A stretch of DNA of 64,000 bases from Pseudomonadota bacterium (GTDB lineage: Bacteria > Desulfobacterota > Binatia > UBA9968). Positions 17,770 through 21,910 of this stretch are shown here, one piece after another (position 1 is the first letter of the stretch; every line of letters begins with the position of its first letter). The DNA lies in the NCBI GenBank assembly GCA_021324155.1, contig JAJPJQ010000051.1, forward strand, positions 199,293-263,292. Direction: 5' to 3'. The notes under the pieces were generated by a model, which had not been told where the DNA came from, did not search any database, and saw only the letters and a program-made list of their open reading frames with translations. A program made the translations under genes and the position numbers.

Positions 17770-18939
17770 TCAGCTCCACAATTGTTTGCTCGCGATGCGC
17801 GCGCCCTCGGCCATCGCTTTGAACTTGGCCCATACGACGGTTGGATGAATTTCTGGTTCAGCGGTCGCCTGCGAGGAGAAGCCGCAGTCGCTGCCGGCCA
17901 TGACATTCTCGCGCCCGACGATTTTGGCGTAACGCACGAGTCGCTCGGCAACGACCTCGGGATGCTCGACGATATTCGTCGTGTGGCTGATGACGCCGGG
18001 GATGATAATCTTTCCTTCCGGCAGCTTGATAGTTTCCCACACGCGCCATTCGTGCTCGTGGCGCGGATTGGCACCCTCGAACGAAAACGCGCCGGCTTTG
18101 ACGCGCAGCATGATATCGGCGATGTCTTTCAACCCGAGGTCGTGAATCCGCGGGCCGATGTTGATGCCGTAGCAAGTGTGGAAGCGGATTTTCTCCGGCG
18201 GAATGTCGCGCAGCGCGTGATTCAGCGCTTCGACGCGCAGGTCGGCCCATTGGCGGCTCTGCTCGACGGACTTGCTGGGATTCGCGTTGTAATACGACAC
18301 CAGGCGGGGGTCGTCGACTTGCAGCAACAAGCCGGCCGCGACGATCGCCTGATACTCCTCGCGCATCGCGTCCGCGATCGCGTAAATGTACGCCTCATCG
18401 TTAGGATAATATTCGTTCTTCCTTTGCGCCTCGATGTTTCCCGGCGAGGTCGAAGGCATAAACGCTTCCTCGACCTTCACGCCGTTCAAAGCAGCCTTGA
18501 AATTTTCGATGTCACGCTTGAGCGTCTCGTGGCCCTTGTAGGTCACGGGGCCGGTACAAAACAGCCCACTGGTGGATGAGACGGACTCGCCGCGCAACCG
18601 CGAATACCATGCGTAATACTCGGGAAAGTCCGCGATCTCGCGCGAGGCAACCCACGGCCCGGCGCGCGGCGGCGCCGGCCGCTGTTCGAATCCGGTGAGG
18701 CGCTCGCCGATGTAAGTGACGAAGCCGGGTTTCCCCTGCTCGCCGTCGCTCACGACATCGACGCCCGCCTCCGACTGGCGGCGCACGACGTCATTCACGG
18801 CACTGCGAACTTGCGCCTCGAATACCTGGCTGTCGTAGGGCCGGCCGCTCTCCTTGGCCGTCATCGTTGCGATCAGGTCCGCCGGCCGCGCCAGGCTGCC
18901 GACGAAGGTGGTCAGGATTCGACCGCTGCTCCGTTTCAT
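17770..18939 (-). CDS. cobalamin-independent methionine synthase (MetE) C-terminal-domain-like zinc methyltransferase
   Basis: ORF 17770..18999 trimmed to MKRSSGRIL. FHTCYG (His-x-Cys) and SDCGFS Cys motifs match the MetE/UroD-like zinc site. ~390 aa. Confidence 0.65.
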   Translation of the reverse strand: MKRSSGRILTTFVGSLARPADLIATMTAKESGRPYDSQVFEAQVRSAVNDVVRRQSEAGVDVVSDGEQGKPGFVTYIGERLTGFEQRPAPPRAGPWVASREIADFPEYYAWYSRLRGESVSSTSGLFCTGPVTYKGHETLKRDIENFKAALNGVKVEEAFMPSTSPGNIEAQRKNEYYPNDEAYIYAIADAMREEYQAIVAAGLLLQVDDPRLVSYYNANPSKSVEQSRQWADLRVEALNHALRDIPPEKIRFHTCYGINIGPRIHDLGLKDIADIMLRVKAGAFSFEGANPRHEHEWRVWETIKLPEGKIIIPGVISHTTNIVEHPEVVAERLVRYAKIVGRENVMAGSDCGFSSQATAEPEIHPTVVWAKFKAMAEGARIASKQLWS

Positions 18940-19117
18940 TTTGGATCCTTTCCAGTTAGTTTGCGCGCGGGCGCGCGCCGCCTTTGACGCATAGTCCATC
19001 GCGCGCTGCGGGTCAATGTTGACCGCCGCTTGACCCTTTCGGCTCGGGGATAGTAGACGACGACATGCCGGCCGTTCGGCTGATCACGTTGACGAGCGAT
19101 CTCCGGGGCCGCGGCGC
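18912..19117. repeat. direct repeat copy 1 (206 bp) of the divergent promoter/5' region
   Basis: ~96% identical to 20150..20355 with 7 differences. Contains the intact ATG of the MetE-like gene and a truncated start of the divergently oriented gene (MPAVRLITLTSDLRGRGAKK*). Confidence 0.85.
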
Positions 19118-19177
19118 AAAAAAGGCGGCGGGAGTCTTTTCTTGAACAACGGAACGGGCCGCGCGATAGAAGCCTTG

Positions 19178-19246
19178 CTCATACCGCGCCGTCCGCGCAT
19201 CGCTACTGGCGGACTAGCTTACCACGTGCTCAACCGGCGCGTCGGC
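19178..19246 (+). pseudogene. IS200/IS605-like (Y1 / REP-associated tyrosine transposase) N-terminal remnant
   Basis: The frame of ORF 19142..19417 reads IPRRPRIATGGLAYHVLNRRVGR. This matches the hallmark N-terminus of IS200-like TnpA/RAYT (M.R.PRI...G..YHV..R.N.R). The expected start is ATA, and similarity is lost after ~25 codons. Confidence 0.45.
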
Positions 19247-19384
19247 CGGCTGCGGTTGCGCGCGAATTCCGCGTTCGCCGCAACCATACCTACGAGTGAA
19301 AAGAGGAGCTCACCAGTACATTGCGGACGCTTTTCCGGGCATAGGGCGGCGCTCTGCGGCCAAAGACGAAGTGACGCGTCTGTG

Positions 19385-19460
19385 TGGAGCGGGTCAAGGA
19401 GGAGCGGGGCATCCTAAAAAAAGCGGCAGTGTACTTTGCCAAGGAGCTCAAGAGAAGTAC
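19385..19460 (+). pseudogene. IS3-family OrfA C-terminal remnant
   Basis: ORF 19384..19596 begins (GTG) ERVKEERGILKKAAVYFAKELK. The 'ILKKAA.YFAKE' block is the conserved end of IS3-family OrfA just before the frameshift window. An in-frame stop lies 4 codons upstream. Confidence 0.45.
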
Positions 19461-19519
19461 GCGTTTATTGGAGGCTCAGAGGGAAGCGGAGCCGCAAGGG
19501 AAGTCTTTACCTCTTCACT

Positions 19520-20023
19520 TCAACAGCGATCCGAAAGTCGGAGACCCGAGAGTCGGGCCGTCGAAAGCTTCAGGTGACTATGCAGACCTCCGATGACGGC
19601 CGCCCGCTCCATCAAAGCCGTCAATTGTCCTTCGTGCGCCACCTCGAAGAGCAGAATGGACGCGAGACGCAGCTGATTTTCTGCAACGTAGGCACGCAGC
19701 TGCTCGTCGCTCCCGATCTTCCAGATGCGTCCGAAAGCACGCATCACCGCAAGGACAGTAGGTGCTACGTCGGAAAGACCGGCTGTATCGAGGAGCTTCG
19801 GAAGCGACTCTGGCGATTCTTCATGAACCAAAGCGGTTAACCTTAACGCGATGATTTCCGCATAGTCCTTATCGGCGGCCGTCTCTACGCGCCGGTAAAC
19901 CTCGCCTATATGCTCGAAGAGTTTCACCGGAAATTTTCCAAGCCGACTCCCGGCGGCGGCGCTGGCGATACTCGAATACGAGCCGGGTCGCGAAATCAGT
20001 TGTCGAAGGTCCGAATCACTCAT
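19520..20023 (-). CDS. hypothetical protein carried on the insert
   Basis: 167-aa ORF, lower GC, no family recognised. The only intact ORF inside the repeat-bracketed insert. Confidence 0.35.
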   Translation of the reverse strand: MSDSDLRQLISRPGSYSSIASAAAGSRLGKFPVKLFEHIGEVYRRVETAADKDYAEIIALRLTALVHEESPESLPKLLDTAGLSDVAPTVLAVMRAFGRIWKIGSDEQLRAYVAENQLRLASILLFEVAHEGQLTALMERAAVIGGLHSHLKLSTARLSGLRLSDRC

Positions 20024-20149
20024 GCTGGTAGAAAGTTGGGATCGGTGAGCTGACCCGCATATCTAACTTAACAACTTCTTTTCTAAGATTGGCTTGCCTG
20101 TTCACTCACTGCCACCGCCGGAAAAGACTCCCGACCCCTTAAATTCCGT

Positions 20150-20355
20150 TCAGGATTCGACCGCTGCTCCGTTTCGTTTTGGATCCTTTTCAGTTAGTTT
20201 GCGCGCGGGCGCGCGCCACCTTTGACGCATAGTCCATCGCGCGCTGCGGGTCAATGTTGACCGCCGCTTGACCCATTCGGCTCCGGGATAGTAGACGACG
20301 ACATGCCGGCCGTTCGGCTGATCAAGTTGACGAGCGATCTCCGGGGCGCGGCGCG
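20150..20355. repeat. direct repeat copy 2 (206 bp)
   Basis: Copy of 18912..19117. Here the MetE-like start is degenerate (ATG->ACG on the minus strand), and the divergent gene 20303..21910 is intact. Confidence 0.85.
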
Positions 20356-21910
20356 GCTCGCGCGATCGCTGCCGGCGTTTTTGCGCGCGCGCGTCACGGC
20401 GCGAGACGCCGAAGCGGAGATCGAGCGAGGCGTCCGAGAACGCGAAAAACGTCTTCTCGAATCCGCGCGCGATTGGATCTACGGCAACTCCGACAGCCCC
20501 TATCTCAAACTCCTAAAGCACGCCGGCTGCGAGTTCGCGGATCTCGAGGCCGAGGTCGGGAGCCGCGGCCTGGAGGCGGCGCTTGAGAATTTGGCGCGCG
20601 CAGGCGTCTATCTCACCGACGACGAGCTTAAGGGGAAAAAGGAAATCGTGCGGGGAGAATGCTCCTTCCGCGTTCGCCCGGCCGACCTAGAGCTGCCGGA
20701 CGCGCCTGCCGGCTTTGCTGTCGAGAGCAGCGGCACCGGCAACCGTCCAGTGCGTTCCCAGATCCGTCTCGACTATCTCGCGGCCCGAGCGTACATAACG
20801 GCCGTCTTTTTCTCCGCGCACGATCTTTGGGCCGCCTCGCACGCGCTTTACGACGCGATTCTTCCGGGCGGCGGCGGAGTGAACAACCTGCTCGTCTATG
20901 CGAAATTGGGCATCAGCACCGATCGGTGGTTCGCGCGTAAGATTCCCGCCGACAATCGCCTGGCCGCCTGGTACCATTACCTGCTCACGCAGCTGATCGT
21001 GCTCAACGGTAATTGGTTCGGCCCGGGCTTTCCGGCACCTGAATTCACCGATATCGCCGACGCGCCGCGCATCGTCCGCTGGGCTGCCGGGAAGCGCCGC
21101 CAAGGGACGCGCTGCTGTATCACCACCGCCGCCAGCAACGCGGCACGCATCGCGCGCGCGGCATGGGACATGGGCGAGTCGCTTGCGGGCGCGCGATTCA
21201 TCGTGAGCGGCGAGCCGTTCACGGACGCGAAGCGCGCTCTGATCGAGCGCGCCGGCGCCTTCGCAACATCGCGCTACGCGTACGGCGGCGGCGTCATGGT
21301 CGGTTACGGCTGCGGCGCGCCGGTAGCCGGCGACGACGTCCATGTCGACGAGACCAGGCTCGCGCTCATCGAGCATCCCGCGCCACTCCCGGATATCGAC
21401 CCTGTAATCCGTCCGCTGCTTTTGACCACGCTGCACCCTTCGGCCGGCTCCCGCTTTCTGCTCAACGTCGCGAACGGCGACTACGCCGAGCTCGCGCGAA
21501 GGAGCTGCGGCTGCGCGCTCGAAAAGAGCGGCCTTACGCTCCACGTCCACGAAATCCGCAGCTACGAGAAATTCACGAGCGAGGGAATGAACTACTTCTA
21601 CGGCGATCTGTATGAATTCTTCGAGCGCACGCTGCCCGCCGAGTTCGGCGGCGCGGCCGGCGACTACCAGCTCGTGGAAGAAGAAGATGAGACGGGTCAA
21701 ACCCGCCTCACGCTGATGGTCCACCCCATGATCGGCACCTTCGACGAGAGCAAGCTGCTGCTCCGGCTTCAGCGCCGGCTGGCCGATGGCTCTCCCGCCA
21801 ACCGCTTTCAGGCCGAAATCTGGCGTCGCGCGGGGACCTGCAGGATTCGCAGGGAGGCGCCGCGCGCGAGTCCGCGCGGCAAAATTCTGCCGCTGCAATT
21901 CAGGCGCTGA
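20303..21910 (+). CDS. putative adenylate-forming enzyme (PaaK/CapK/F390-synthetase-like)
   Basis: 535-aa ORF with high GC3 in this frame. ESSGTGNRPV resembles the SSGTTG.P adenylation P-loop of the PaaK-like family. The 403-aa antisense ORF 20687..21898 is rejected. Confidence 0.45.
   Translation: MPAVRLIKLTSDLRGAARLARSLPAFLRARVTARDAEAEIERGVREREKRLLESARDWIYGNSDSPYLKLLKHAGCEFADLEAEVGSRGLEAALENLARAGVYLTDDELKGKKEIVRGECSFRVRPADLELPDAPAGFAVESSGTGNRPVRSQIRLDYLAARAYITAVFFSAHDLWAASHALYDAILPGGGGVNNLLVYAKLGISTDRWFARKIPADNRLAAWYHYLLTQLIVLNGNWFGPGFPAPEFTDIADAPRIVRWAAGKRRQGTRCCITTAASNAARIARAAWDMGESLAGARFIVSGEPFTDAKRALIERAGAFATSRYAYGGGVMVGYGCGAPVAGDDVHVDETRLALIEHPAPLPDIDPVIRPLLLTTLHPSAGSRFLLNVANGDYAELARRSCGCALEKSGLTLHVHEIRSYEKFTSEGMNYFYGDLYEFFERTLPAEFGGAAGDYQLVEEEDETGQTRLTLMVHPMIGTFDESKLLLRLQRRLADGSPANRFQAEIWRRAGTCRIRREAPRASPRGKILPLQFRR

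Follow-up and report, generated by a model that had tools for sequence, protein, structure and literature searches.

A 1-kb insert with inverted REP-like ends between two copies of a divergent promoter region in a Candidatus Binatia genome

DDE insertion sequences are associated with a fixed short target duplication, under about 15 bp, next to their terminal inverted repeats, while REPIN/RAYT and IS200/IS605 insertions are not known to duplicate their target. In phage 21 and e14 at icd, the element carries its own copy of the target, and the long diverged repeats keep the gene functional. Target-site duplications reach 19-26 bp for IS1630 (PMC2853133). Much longer duplications have been given the name "insertion with long target duplication" (Nobusato et al. 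2000, Gene 259:99; Furuta, Abe & Kobayashi 2010, PMC2853133); in these, target duplications of 46-423 bp surround the inserted DNA, the repeats are 93-99% identical, and the empty sites have a single copy (PMC2853133). The classical inserts carry restriction-modification genes, whose cleavage has been proposed as the driver, and the cases are mostly in naturally competent bacteria (PMC2853133). Over about 25 years, such insertions have been recorded nearly always around restriction-modification genes, which has fostered the view that the breaks are made by the nuclease that these genes encode. A structure of a different scale, Dup-IS-Dup, arose de novo in the laboratory in Pseudomonas fluorescens SBW25 and has been read as insertion into a break while the duplication formed (PMC11708052).

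The locus described here was found in the window, which is the whole stretch of 64,000 nucleotides that was analysed, and comes from an uncultured soil Binatia bacterium. It has the following features:

17770-18939, minus strand: intact MetE-like gene (cobalamin-independent methionine synthase II family), 389 aa
18912-19117, no strand: copy 1 of the 206-bp duplication, with MetE-like codons 1-9, the 125-nt intergenic region and the 5' end of the 535-aa gene as a dead remnant
19118-20149, no strand: 1032-bp insert, GC 57%, not in any related genome examined
19118-19141, plus strand: left REP arm, AAAAAAGGCGGCGGGAGTCTTTTC, with 2 mismatches to the family 18-mer core
19181-19258, plus strand: 5' fragment of a RAYT (Y1/IS200-like transposase), codons 1-26, start changed from ATG to ATA
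19255-19469, plus strand: internal fragment of the IS3 family, OrfA aa ~29-97, carrying in-frame stops and a frameshift
19520-20023, minus strand: intact 167-aa gene, the sole intact gene of the insert
20121-20140, minus strand: right REP arm, reverse complement AAGGGGTCGGGAGTCTTTTC, family 18-mer without mismatch
20150-20354, no strand: copy 2 of the duplication, with the MetE-like 5' end as a dead remnant, the complete intergenic region and codons 1-17 of the 535-aa gene
20303-21910, plus strand: intact 535-aa conserved hypothetical gene, "PaaK-like" in the initial annotation

The two direct-repeat copies on either side of the insert align by BLAST over 206 columns at 96.6% identity, with 6 mismatches and 1 gap, and the repeat search gave 198 nt at 97% when ungapped; the latter found no other direct repeat longer than 31 nt in the 4.5-kb region around the insert. 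The initial annotation had proposed a long direct repeat flanking the insert, which the repeat search, BLAST and pairwise alignment all recovered; its coordinates for copy 1 were also correct, but its end for copy 2 (20355) overshot by one base owing to the 1-nt indel between the copies. This indel is an extra C in copy 1 near 19104-19109, and the substitutions (copy 1/copy 2) are at 18938/20176, 18952/20190, 18980/20218, 19037/20275, 19046/20284, and 19087/20325. Each copy includes 28 nt of the MetE-like gene (9 codons plus 1 nt), the entire intergenic region, and 52 nt of the 535-aa gene (17 codons plus 1 nt); the earlier count of 9 MetE-like codons stands with the additional nucleotide, while that of about 15 codons for the divergent gene was too low. 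The duplicated target thus comprises the promoter region with 9 and 17 codons, so each gene keeps a complete native 5' end. The MetE-like gene has its functional start in copy 1 (CAT at 18937-18939 on the plus strand); the true start at 18939 gives the 389-aa form that matches its homologues, and 178 nt of native upstream sequence are retained. The functional start of the 535-aa gene is in copy 2 (ATG at 20303), behind 153 nt of native upstream sequence.

Both displaced partial gene copies have decayed, one by an ATG to ACG change and the other by a frameshift. The ACG in place of the MetE-like start in copy 2 had been read correctly from the outset, with G at 20176. The remnant of the 535-aa gene in copy 1 begins with ATG at 19065, has a T8 substitution and a +1 frameshift, and translates as MPAVRLITLTSDLRGRGAKKAAGVFS followed by a stop, rather than as the sequence ending in GAKK and a stop that had been given for it. 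The "PaaK-like" label of this gene has almost no support: the 535-aa sequence has no match in Pfam, NCBIfam, or PDB, and among the 120 homologues listed, the PaaK name is on 1 IMG entry only. A scan of 18500-20700 against Rfam gave no family match at E <= 1, and a promoter and terminator scan of the insert region was uninformative.

The divergent pair is uninterrupted, with one copy of the segment, in eight related Binatia genomes, where the genes are about 125-214 nt apart. In L009, L010, and L011 the single segment aligns to both repeat copies. L180-L183 and the closest relative, P0075 (88% amino acid identity), also have the empty site, with the genes 129-214 nt apart, and in L180-L183 the intergenic region is too diverged for polarising the differences between the copies. 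These genomes agree with the earlier proposal that a lineage-specific insertion split a divergent gene pair. Since the outgroups carry one copy, a chance insertion between repeats that already existed was rejected.

Direct repeats at 96-97% identity are also what strain mixtures yield, and all of the sequences here are metagenome assemblies, so a two-strain chimera or a mis-joined repeat needs to be weighed. The insert and both repeats are identical in an ENA contig of 730 kb and in the NCBI MAG GCA_037025705.1, but these two may be one assembly. A second Candidatus Binatia MAG, GCA_037025685.1, shares the structure, insert and repeats included, and has 2 SNPs in 6033 nt, both outside the feature. 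An independent Logan contig (L002), made with a different assembler and recovered from 3 samples, spans 19057-20248 and thereby crosses the complete insert with its two junctions. Its ends coincide with the first and the last 31-mer to contain the copy-specific SNPs 19087 and 20218; since it breaks only where the copies share 31-mers, the assembly graph is unbranched at the insert borders. The decay of the dispensable half of each copy, through a lost start codon and a frameshift, also makes biological sense. An assembly artefact is therefore extremely unlikely, and the earlier view that the locus is not mis-assembled holds as far as assemblies show (two MAGs, the ENA contig, and the Logan contig), the check having been made with assemblies only, all possibly from related samples of one study.

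The ends of the insert are inverted copies of a widespread REP-like 22-mer, AAAAGGGGTCGGGAGTCTTTTC. The left arm is flush with the end of copy 1, and 9 nt (AAATTCCGT, 20141-20149) lie between the right arm and copy 2; the arms are complementary at 18 of 20 positions and both match the family consensus. The exact 18-mer was found in more than 120 metagenome contigs, and about 35 convergent, REPIN-like doublets with 17-100 nt between the arms occur in metagenome contigs and fold as strong DNA hairpins (z -4.7 to -9.6). In unrelated contigs the arm motif is conserved approximately 40 nt upstream of RAYT starts, and convergent pairs 716-754 nt apart enclose PF01797 proteins of 221-226 aa, forming RAYT units of about 750 bp. 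The intact RAYT relatives in other contigs match PF01797 at E 1e-13, and the left 155 nt of the insert (arm, 40-nt leader, and RAYT start) have 70-79% DNA identity to the left ends of the intact units. The arms of the insert are 997 nt apart (979-nt spacer), compared with 716-754 nt for the RAYT units.

With inverted REP arms and a RAYT start, the insert is therefore a degenerate REP-RAYT-REP unit, and the recognition of its inverted REP termini is new here. The initial annotation described the insert as a scar; this is apt in that it contains mobile-element debris, but because it is bounded by inverted arms of a RAYT-associated REP family, it is one recognisable degenerate mobile unit and not a random scar. 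None of 44 further convergent REP pairs that were tested has a long direct repeat at its flanks. The duplication is therefore an exception within the REP family and was rejected as a family trait; the result also agrees with the earlier statement that 206 bp is too long for the target-site duplication of an insertion sequence. Among these pairs, one 39-nt non-adjacent match was seen in L148 and disregarded.

The two transposase fragments recognised in the initial annotation were both recovered. Over its 26 codons, the RAYT fragment shares 88-96% identity with the N-termini of PF01797 proteins (E ~5e-6 in 5.8 billion sequences), in agreement with the IS200-like N-terminus with an ATA start reported earlier; no HUH or Tyr region is found in the insert, which has only codons 1-26 with the start mutated. 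The IS3 fragment is longer than had been noted, as it comprises OrfA aa 29-97 followed by the start of OrfB ("KYAFI," 19455-19469), and it has neither a DDE domain nor IS3 ends, the OrfA being pseudogenised and OrfB limited to 5 codons. Confirmation of these fragments came solely through a word-seeded search of a large protein collection: neither short fragment has a Pfam or NCBIfam match, even at E <= 10, and in searches against plasmids the RAYT fragment matched nothing (tblastn), while the IS3 fragment had weak matches only (E 0.4-9), several of them under features called "IS3 family transposase." No second copy of the insert and no intact transposase was found in the window by blastn and tblastx.

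The insert's GC content is 57.0%, compared with 61.4% for the window and 62-69% for the flanks; the lower GC noted initially is real, but modest. Neither the rest of the 64-kb window nor about 560 kb from related Binatia loci gave another REP copy. Judged by its composition and relatives, the insert looks foreign, because the REP is absent from these sequences, GC is 57% versus 61-69%, and its passenger protein shares no more than 62% identity with the nearest homologue.

Integrative elements are typically flanked by long direct repeats, slightly diverged, by which the interrupted genes are restored, and if the repeats were attL and attR of a target-carrying element that was later deleted to 1 kb, hybrid repeats with a crossover point would be expected, which the pattern of copy differences fits. 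However, no working transposase or recombinase is encoded in the insert, the genes called within 10 kb of it include no integrase or recombinase, and its ends are the arms of one small REP-RAYT unit, unlike what a random deletion would leave of an island. The target is the promoter region of protein genes rather than a tRNA or other usual att locus, and the site is empty in the eight relatives, so it is not a recurrent attachment site. Site-specific integration is thus very unlikely, and the locus differs from phage 21 and e14 at icd in having no integrase, no att core, and no recurrent use of the site.

Compared with described systems, the structure matches "insertion with long target duplication" and would be a new case of this rare type; that the type already had a name was missed in the initial annotation. 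The screen of Furuta et al. (2010) looked for direct repeats longer than 30 bp (here 206 nt at 96.6%), a related genome without the insert and with one repeat copy (here L009-L011, L180-L183, and P0075), and an insert shorter than 20 kb that is not associated with a prophage, integrase, or tRNA (here 1032 bp in a promoter target). It also looked for restriction and modification genes, which define the screen rather than the type of rearrangement, and the only intact ORF here is neither. As in the catalogued cases, the insert is a few kb or less, there is no integrase, and the repeats correspond to one copy in the empty site. Unlike the classical cases, this one has an insert bounded by RAYT-family REP arms and lies in the genome of an uncultured Binatia bacterium, and its duplicated target is a complete divergent promoter with two gene starts.

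The insert also resembles REP-RAYT units (Nunvar et al. 2010, PMC2817692) in having two inverted REP arms around the start of a Y1 transposase. Its arms enclose gene sequence between two inverted cognate REPs, as in the definition of those units, but the PF01797 Y1 HUH transposase with catalytic motifs is absent from the insert, where the RAYT is cut after codon 26 and followed by IS3 debris and a passenger gene. In such units cognate REPs are abundant in the same genome; the 64 kb covered here has no further copy of this REP. Family doublets form hairpins in many metagenome contigs like REPINs (Bertels & Rainey 2011, PMC3116915), although the insert itself has a 979-nt spacer. A duplication of 206 bp is unlike that of DDE insertion sequences, and the IS3 family, with OrfA-OrfB frameshift, DDE domain, and TG...CA ends, is represented only by a pseudogenised piece of OrfA and 5 OrfB codons. 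Like Dup-IS-Dup in SBW25 (PMC11708052), the element is exactly at the joint of direct target copies without a normal target-site duplication. The SBW25 structure, however, is an unstable duplication of ~60 kb around an active IS481 from the same genome (PMC11708052), while here the duplication is 206 bp, fixed, and 3.4% diverged, and the unit is dead and foreign.

The origin we favour, with a probability of about 50%, is one event of break repair or capture in which the breaks were staggered 206 nt apart, retained because both genes were preserved. A foreign 1-kb unit entered the head-to-head junction of the MetE-like and 535-aa genes in a Candidatus Binatia lineage, and the 206-bp duplication would have arisen in the same event as the insertion. 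The target strands may have been broken 206 nt apart, the overhangs filled, and a linear or hairpin-ended unit attached by illegitimate end-joining; by an equivalent route, a tandem duplication in the making at a replication fork may have taken up the unit at its open joint. Fixed-stagger transposase chemistry would then not be the maker of the duplication, and retention would be explained if this is the sole way for DNA to enter a compact divergent promoter without killing either gene. We infer these break-repair steps, as none is visible in the finished sequence. The left junction is flush with the A-run of the REP, the right one has the 9-nt filler, and neither has microhomology; the missing microhomology and the filler fit end-joining, with which they are compatible, but they are no proof of it. 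By analogy, the lack of restriction-modification genes would argue against break repair, as the classical examples carry such genes and these are thought to give the breaks.

The REP arms may have provided reactive ends for break repair, through RAYT or hairpin processing, either in the donor or in trans. It is doubtful that they did more, with RAYT in trans or hairpin processing moving a REPIN-like unit with a 1-kb passenger spacer, and HUH-type single-strand insertion at a fork or gap producing the 206-bp duplication. If true, this would be the first example in nature of a REP/RAYT system that takes a passenger gene from one genome to another and would give a mechanistic entry point for "insertion with long target duplication."

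The differences between the copies bear on whether more than one step was involved. Five of the six polarisable differences are derived and in the dispensable half of each copy. The larger share of the differences is in copy 2 (4-5 of 7, none of them shared with L009-L011), and the right end of copy 1 has two derived changes, 19087 C and the extra C. The derived changes are thus in copy 2 on the left and in copy 1 on the right, a pattern that fits a single homologous crossover in 19047-19086 equally well. The divergence between the copies is 3.4%, versus 0.03% between the two MAGs; either the event is old and the repeats were spared gene conversion and deletion, or part of one copy came from another strain, which would favour routes in two steps.

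In one such route, the unit would first have inserted without duplication at codon 18 of the 535-aa gene; homology-facilitated illegitimate recombination would then have brought rescue by adding copy 2 from related-strain DNA, with a homologous crossover downstream and an illegitimate joint at the right end of the unit. The concentration of unique differences in copy 2, the filler at the right junction only, and the greater divergence between the copies than between the MAGs would all be accounted for. All differences should then be foreign versus resident, yet copy 1 has its own two changes (maybe later decay), the copy-2 variants are in no sampled relative, and the incoming fragment must end exactly 28 nt into the MetE-like gene. 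This rescue is unlikely.

Two alleles joined by homologous recombination predict exactly the observed structure, including the flush borders. The unit would have inserted at MetE codon 10 in one chromosome and at codon 18 of the 535-aa gene in another, either a sister chromatid after a local hop or another strain, and a crossover inside the unit would have restored both genes. HUH-type elements move locally at replication forks, in keeping with such a hop; ISDra2 is cited as an element of this kind (PMC11708052). The product, with both genes intact, would be selectively favoured, and alleles from different strains would give 3.4% divergence without a long wait. However, two independent insertions of a non-autonomous unit are needed, 206 bp apart and in the same orientation, although the REP has no other copy in 64 kb, and each intermediate disrupts a gene. 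A single insertion of either kind was found in none of the 8 related genomes, and since the Logan contig shows no branching where the insert begins and ends, neither of the parental junctions occurs at appreciable depth. Recombination between two alleles is accordingly rather unlikely.

[quoted passage not shown] Because the host is uncultured, the case serves as an illustration and not as an experimental system.

The passenger gene was initially called an intact 167-aa orphan ORF; it is intact, but not an orphan. The protein is a full-length member of a conserved all-helical family of 170-190 aa, with homologues in 22 clusters at 53-67% identity. A relationship to a diverged RAYT domain (tblastn E 0.02) was dropped because the hhalign probability was only 1.4%. 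No homologue was found in 513 kb of REP-bearing contigs, and no REP near the homologues in L005-L008. The protein has no Pfam, NCBIfam, or PDB match, and its predicted fold has no likeness to a nuclease or methyltransferase. The AF2 model is confident (pLDDT 92), and Foldseek gave weak matches (E >= 0.026) to the helical body of tRNA nucleotidyltransferase and to HD domains.

The direct repeats that flank the insert occupy 18912-19117 and 20150-20354, with 198 nt at 97% identity ungapped in a repeat search and 96.6% identity over 206 columns (six mismatches and one gap) by BLAST; the repeat search found no other direct repeat longer than 31 nt in the surrounding 4.5 kb. In copy-1 coordinates the six substitutions are at 18938, 18952, 18980, 19037, 19046, and 19087, with copy-2 variants including 20176 G, 20190 T, 20218 A, 20275 A, and 20284 C, and copy 1 has an extra C near its right end relative to copy 2. 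Homologues of the MetE-like protein begin MKRSS…, which places the true start of its gene at the ATG at 18939 on the minus strand (389 aa). Each copy contains 28 nt of this gene, the complete 125-nt intergenic region, and 52 nt (17 codons and 1 nt) of the divergent 535-aa gene. In copy 1 the MetE-like start survives and the 535-aa gene is left as a frameshifted remnant that reads MPAVRLITLTSDLRGRGAKKAAGVFS and then stops; in copy 2 the 535-aa gene is intact and the MetE-like start codon is now ACG. The direct duplication described in the initial annotation was confirmed by repeat search, BLAST, and pairwise alignment, and the content given there for each copy is right in outline.

The window belongs to a Candidatus Binatia genome. 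ENA contig k141_2919860 (730 kb) and the NCBI MAG GCA_037025705.1 show this region without any difference, and a second MAG, GCA_037025685.1, has the whole structure on a 6-kb contig with two SNPs (16617 and 20687), both outside the feature. A Logan contig, made by a different assembler and recovered from three samples, corresponds to 19057-20248 and crosses both junctions. Copy-specific bases set its limits: the first 31-mer to include 19087 (copy 1) opens the contig and the final 31-mer to include 20218 (copy 2) closes it, as expected of a k=31 graph for a true repeat within one genome. The graph is thus free of branches at the borders of the insert, where a chimera of two strains carrying the element at different sites would produce them. 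By these four agreeing lines of assembly evidence the structure is real, with a small residual doubt, and an assembly artefact is highly improbable.

A scan of species-representative genomes for relatives of the 535-aa protein gave 47 loci, nearly all from Binatia. In the three closest of these (L009, L010, and L011; 78-88% nucleotide identity) the genes lie side by side in divergent orientation, and a single segment aligns to copy 1 and copy 2 alike. The genes are 214 nt apart in four loci (L180-L183) and 129 nt apart at the locus of P0075, the closest relative found (88% amino acid identity). The uninterrupted divergent pair that had been expected in related genomes was seen in eight relatives, and the initial interpretation is essentially right. 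Since the site in relatives is free of the insert, the insertion and duplication are derived in this lineage. Both copies lack about 33 nt (11 codons) of the N-terminal coding part of the 535-aa gene in L009-L011, just inside the right duplication border (~19100-19106 and ~20338-20343, versus ~5990-6020 of L009). The short form is also present in P0075, so this deletion is older than the duplication.

The insert is 1032 bp long (19118-20149) and has a GC content of 57.0%; the window as a whole has 61.4% and the flanks have 62-69%. The best inverted repeat of the region, 19122-19141 with 20121-20140 (18 of 20 positions complementary), lies at its two ends, and these REP arms are the sole two copies of the motif within the 64-kb window. 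From left to right the insert contains:

19118 onward, left end: left REP arm (19118-19141, plus strand) and RAYT leader
After the RAYT leader: first 26 RAYT codons, with ATA in place of the ATG start
Directly abutting the RAYT codons: internal IS3 fragment
After the IS3 fragment: about 50 nt without assignment
19520-20023, minus strand: 167-aa gene, with 97 nt of upstream sequence
After that upstream sequence: right REP arm (20121-20140, minus strand)
20141-20149, between the right REP arm and copy 2: the 9 nt AAATTCCGT

The RAYT frame, IPRRPRIATGGLAYHVLNRRVGRLRL, shares 88-96% identity with the N-terminal 26 residues of many PF01797 (Y1 transposase) proteins, one of them named RayT, with E about 5e-6 against 5.8 billion sequences. 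The IS3 piece spans OrfA from about residue 29 to residue 97, is broken by stops and a frameshift, and runs on into KYAFI, with which OrfB usually begins; protein sequence matches thus bear out both of the transposase fragments first noticed here, IS200/RAYT-like and IS3 OrfA. Over its left 155 nt the insert is 70-79% identical in alignment to the left ends of intact REP-RAYT units and, given this alignment and the arms, it is a degenerate REP-RAYT-REP unit carrying a passenger gene. It has the flanking REPs of a REP-RAYT unit but not the transposase, and has nothing of an IS3 element except the sequence similarity of the fragment. The nonamer AAATTCCGT matches neither the REP consensus nor the target and may be filler or donor flank. 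A similar sequence, AATTCCG, is found inside the insert at about 19266-19272, and may be there by chance.

In contigs with RAYT homologues, the arm sequence is ~40 nt upstream of each RAYT start and an inverted copy is just past the gene. The 18-mer GGGGTCGGGAGTCTTTTC is found exactly in at least 120 metagenome contigs from many environments (L056-L178), and the conserved REP core is AAAAGGGGTCGGGAGTCTTTTC. This REP occurs as convergent doublets 17-100 nt apart, which form strong hairpins when folded as DNA (z -4.7 to -9.6), and as convergent pairs 716-754 nt apart, with a few internally deleted units of intermediate spacing. Of nine units with the 716-754-nt spacing that were checked, five still enclose an intact ORF of 221-226 aa and four are disrupted; one of the intact ORFs matches PF01797 (E 1e-13). 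This is the organisation by which REP-RAYT units and REPINs are defined (PMC2817692). RAYT 5' ends that are truncated or frameshifted seem to be frequent in the family (57 aa in L056, frameshifted in L057, disrupted in L111 and L148). The REP motif occurs nowhere else in the window, nor in ~560 kb of DNA from related Binatia loci, which makes the unit look like an isolated arrival from outside; at least one other Binatia MAG, GCA_046757725.1 (L058), has a RAYT belonging to this family. There the RAYT (L058:235-2106) is split after codon 59 by an insertion sequence that codes for an rve_3 transposase and has perfect terminal inverted repeats of 21 nt (468-488 and 1735-1755). RAYT proteins of the family are only 70-75% identical to each other despite the exactly conserved 18-mer, many database proteins matching the RAYT N-terminus (P0024-P0054) are just 53-120 aa long, and L085 has up to four REP copies in 5 kb.

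The 167-aa protein, initially described as an orphan, is a full-length member of a conserved family of 170-190 aa, with 22 homologue clusters at 53-67% identity. Its AlphaFold model is of high confidence (pLDDT 92) and all-helical, and appears weakly similar to the helical body of class II A/CCA-adding enzymes (tRNA nucleotidyltransferases) and to HD domains, while one homologue (P0003, L008:234-1112) is fused to a C-terminal nucleotidyltransferase domain (PF01909). A relationship to RAYT was ruled out (hhalign probability 1.4%). The gene was not found together with this REP in either the REP-bearing contigs or the loci of its homologues.

Insertion with long target duplication has been defined by repeats of more than 30 bp, a single-copy empty site in a related genome, and no involvement of another mobile element or site-specific system; the listed repeats are 46-423 bp with 93-99% identity (PMC2853133). 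The mechanism was not established, and double-strand breaks by inserted restriction enzymes were proposed (PMC2853133). The present case has the structural features of this class but carries no restriction-modification genes, and a single event of this type is the best explanation, with a probability of about 0.5. Breaks staggered by 206 nt would be filled in and then joined to the unit; alternatively, the unit might be captured at the joint of a nascent duplication. The product would be retained by selection because it would be the sole way of inserting DNA here that spares both genes and the promoter. The nearest experimental analogue is the laboratory-born "Dup-IS-Dup," read as insertion into a break during duplication (PMC11708052). 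On the left, copy 1 directly abuts the A-run of the REP; on the right, 9 additional nt intervene, and microhomology is present at neither junction. Neither profile searches nor the called genes revealed a gene for a transposase, integrase, or nuclease in the insert or its surroundings, and a decayed integrase-borne island is very unlikely. A long flanking direct repeat was found in none of 44 other convergent REP pairs (RAYT units and doublets, 350-nt flanks compared); long duplication is not normal for this family.

Judged against L009-L011, the four differences on the left that can be polarised have their derived state in copy 2, and the two on the right have it in copy 1. Decay of the dispensable halves after duplication in situ would give this pattern, and so, equally well, would a homologous crossover within 19047-19086, where the copies are identical. 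Divergence is 3.4% between the copies and 0.03% between the two MAGs, which points either to an old event or to an origin of part of one copy in another strain. A pair of insertions separated by 206 bp and later resolved by a crossover within the unit, for which the parental junctions would be …GACGAAGGTGG joined to AAAAAAGGCGG… and …CCTTAAATTCCGT joined to GGCTCGCGCG…, is an unlikely source of the structure. Slightly less likely again is a simple insertion that was rescued afterwards when a relative's DNA was integrated by homology-facilitated illegitimate recombination; mechanisms other than those considered share the remaining probability. The identity of the insert as a degenerate, REP-bounded RAYT unit carrying a passenger gene, the empty site in eight relatives, and the placement in a class of rearrangement that has been described but not explained are new here. 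As a natural case, though in a host organism that cannot be manipulated, the locus loosens the link between such duplications and restriction enzymes.

The 535-aa protein (gene at 20303-21910) has no sequence match in Pfam, NCBIfam, or PDB, and its large family lacks any Pfam domain. Its 676 homologues at E < 1e-10 are almost all "hypothetical," and the initial "PaaK-like" label is barely supported, with only one IMG entry so named among the 120 homologues listed. Many paralogues of the gene are present in Binatia genomes (L012, L016, L019, L024, L037, and L046), several in tandem arrays, and L012 has three consecutive copies.
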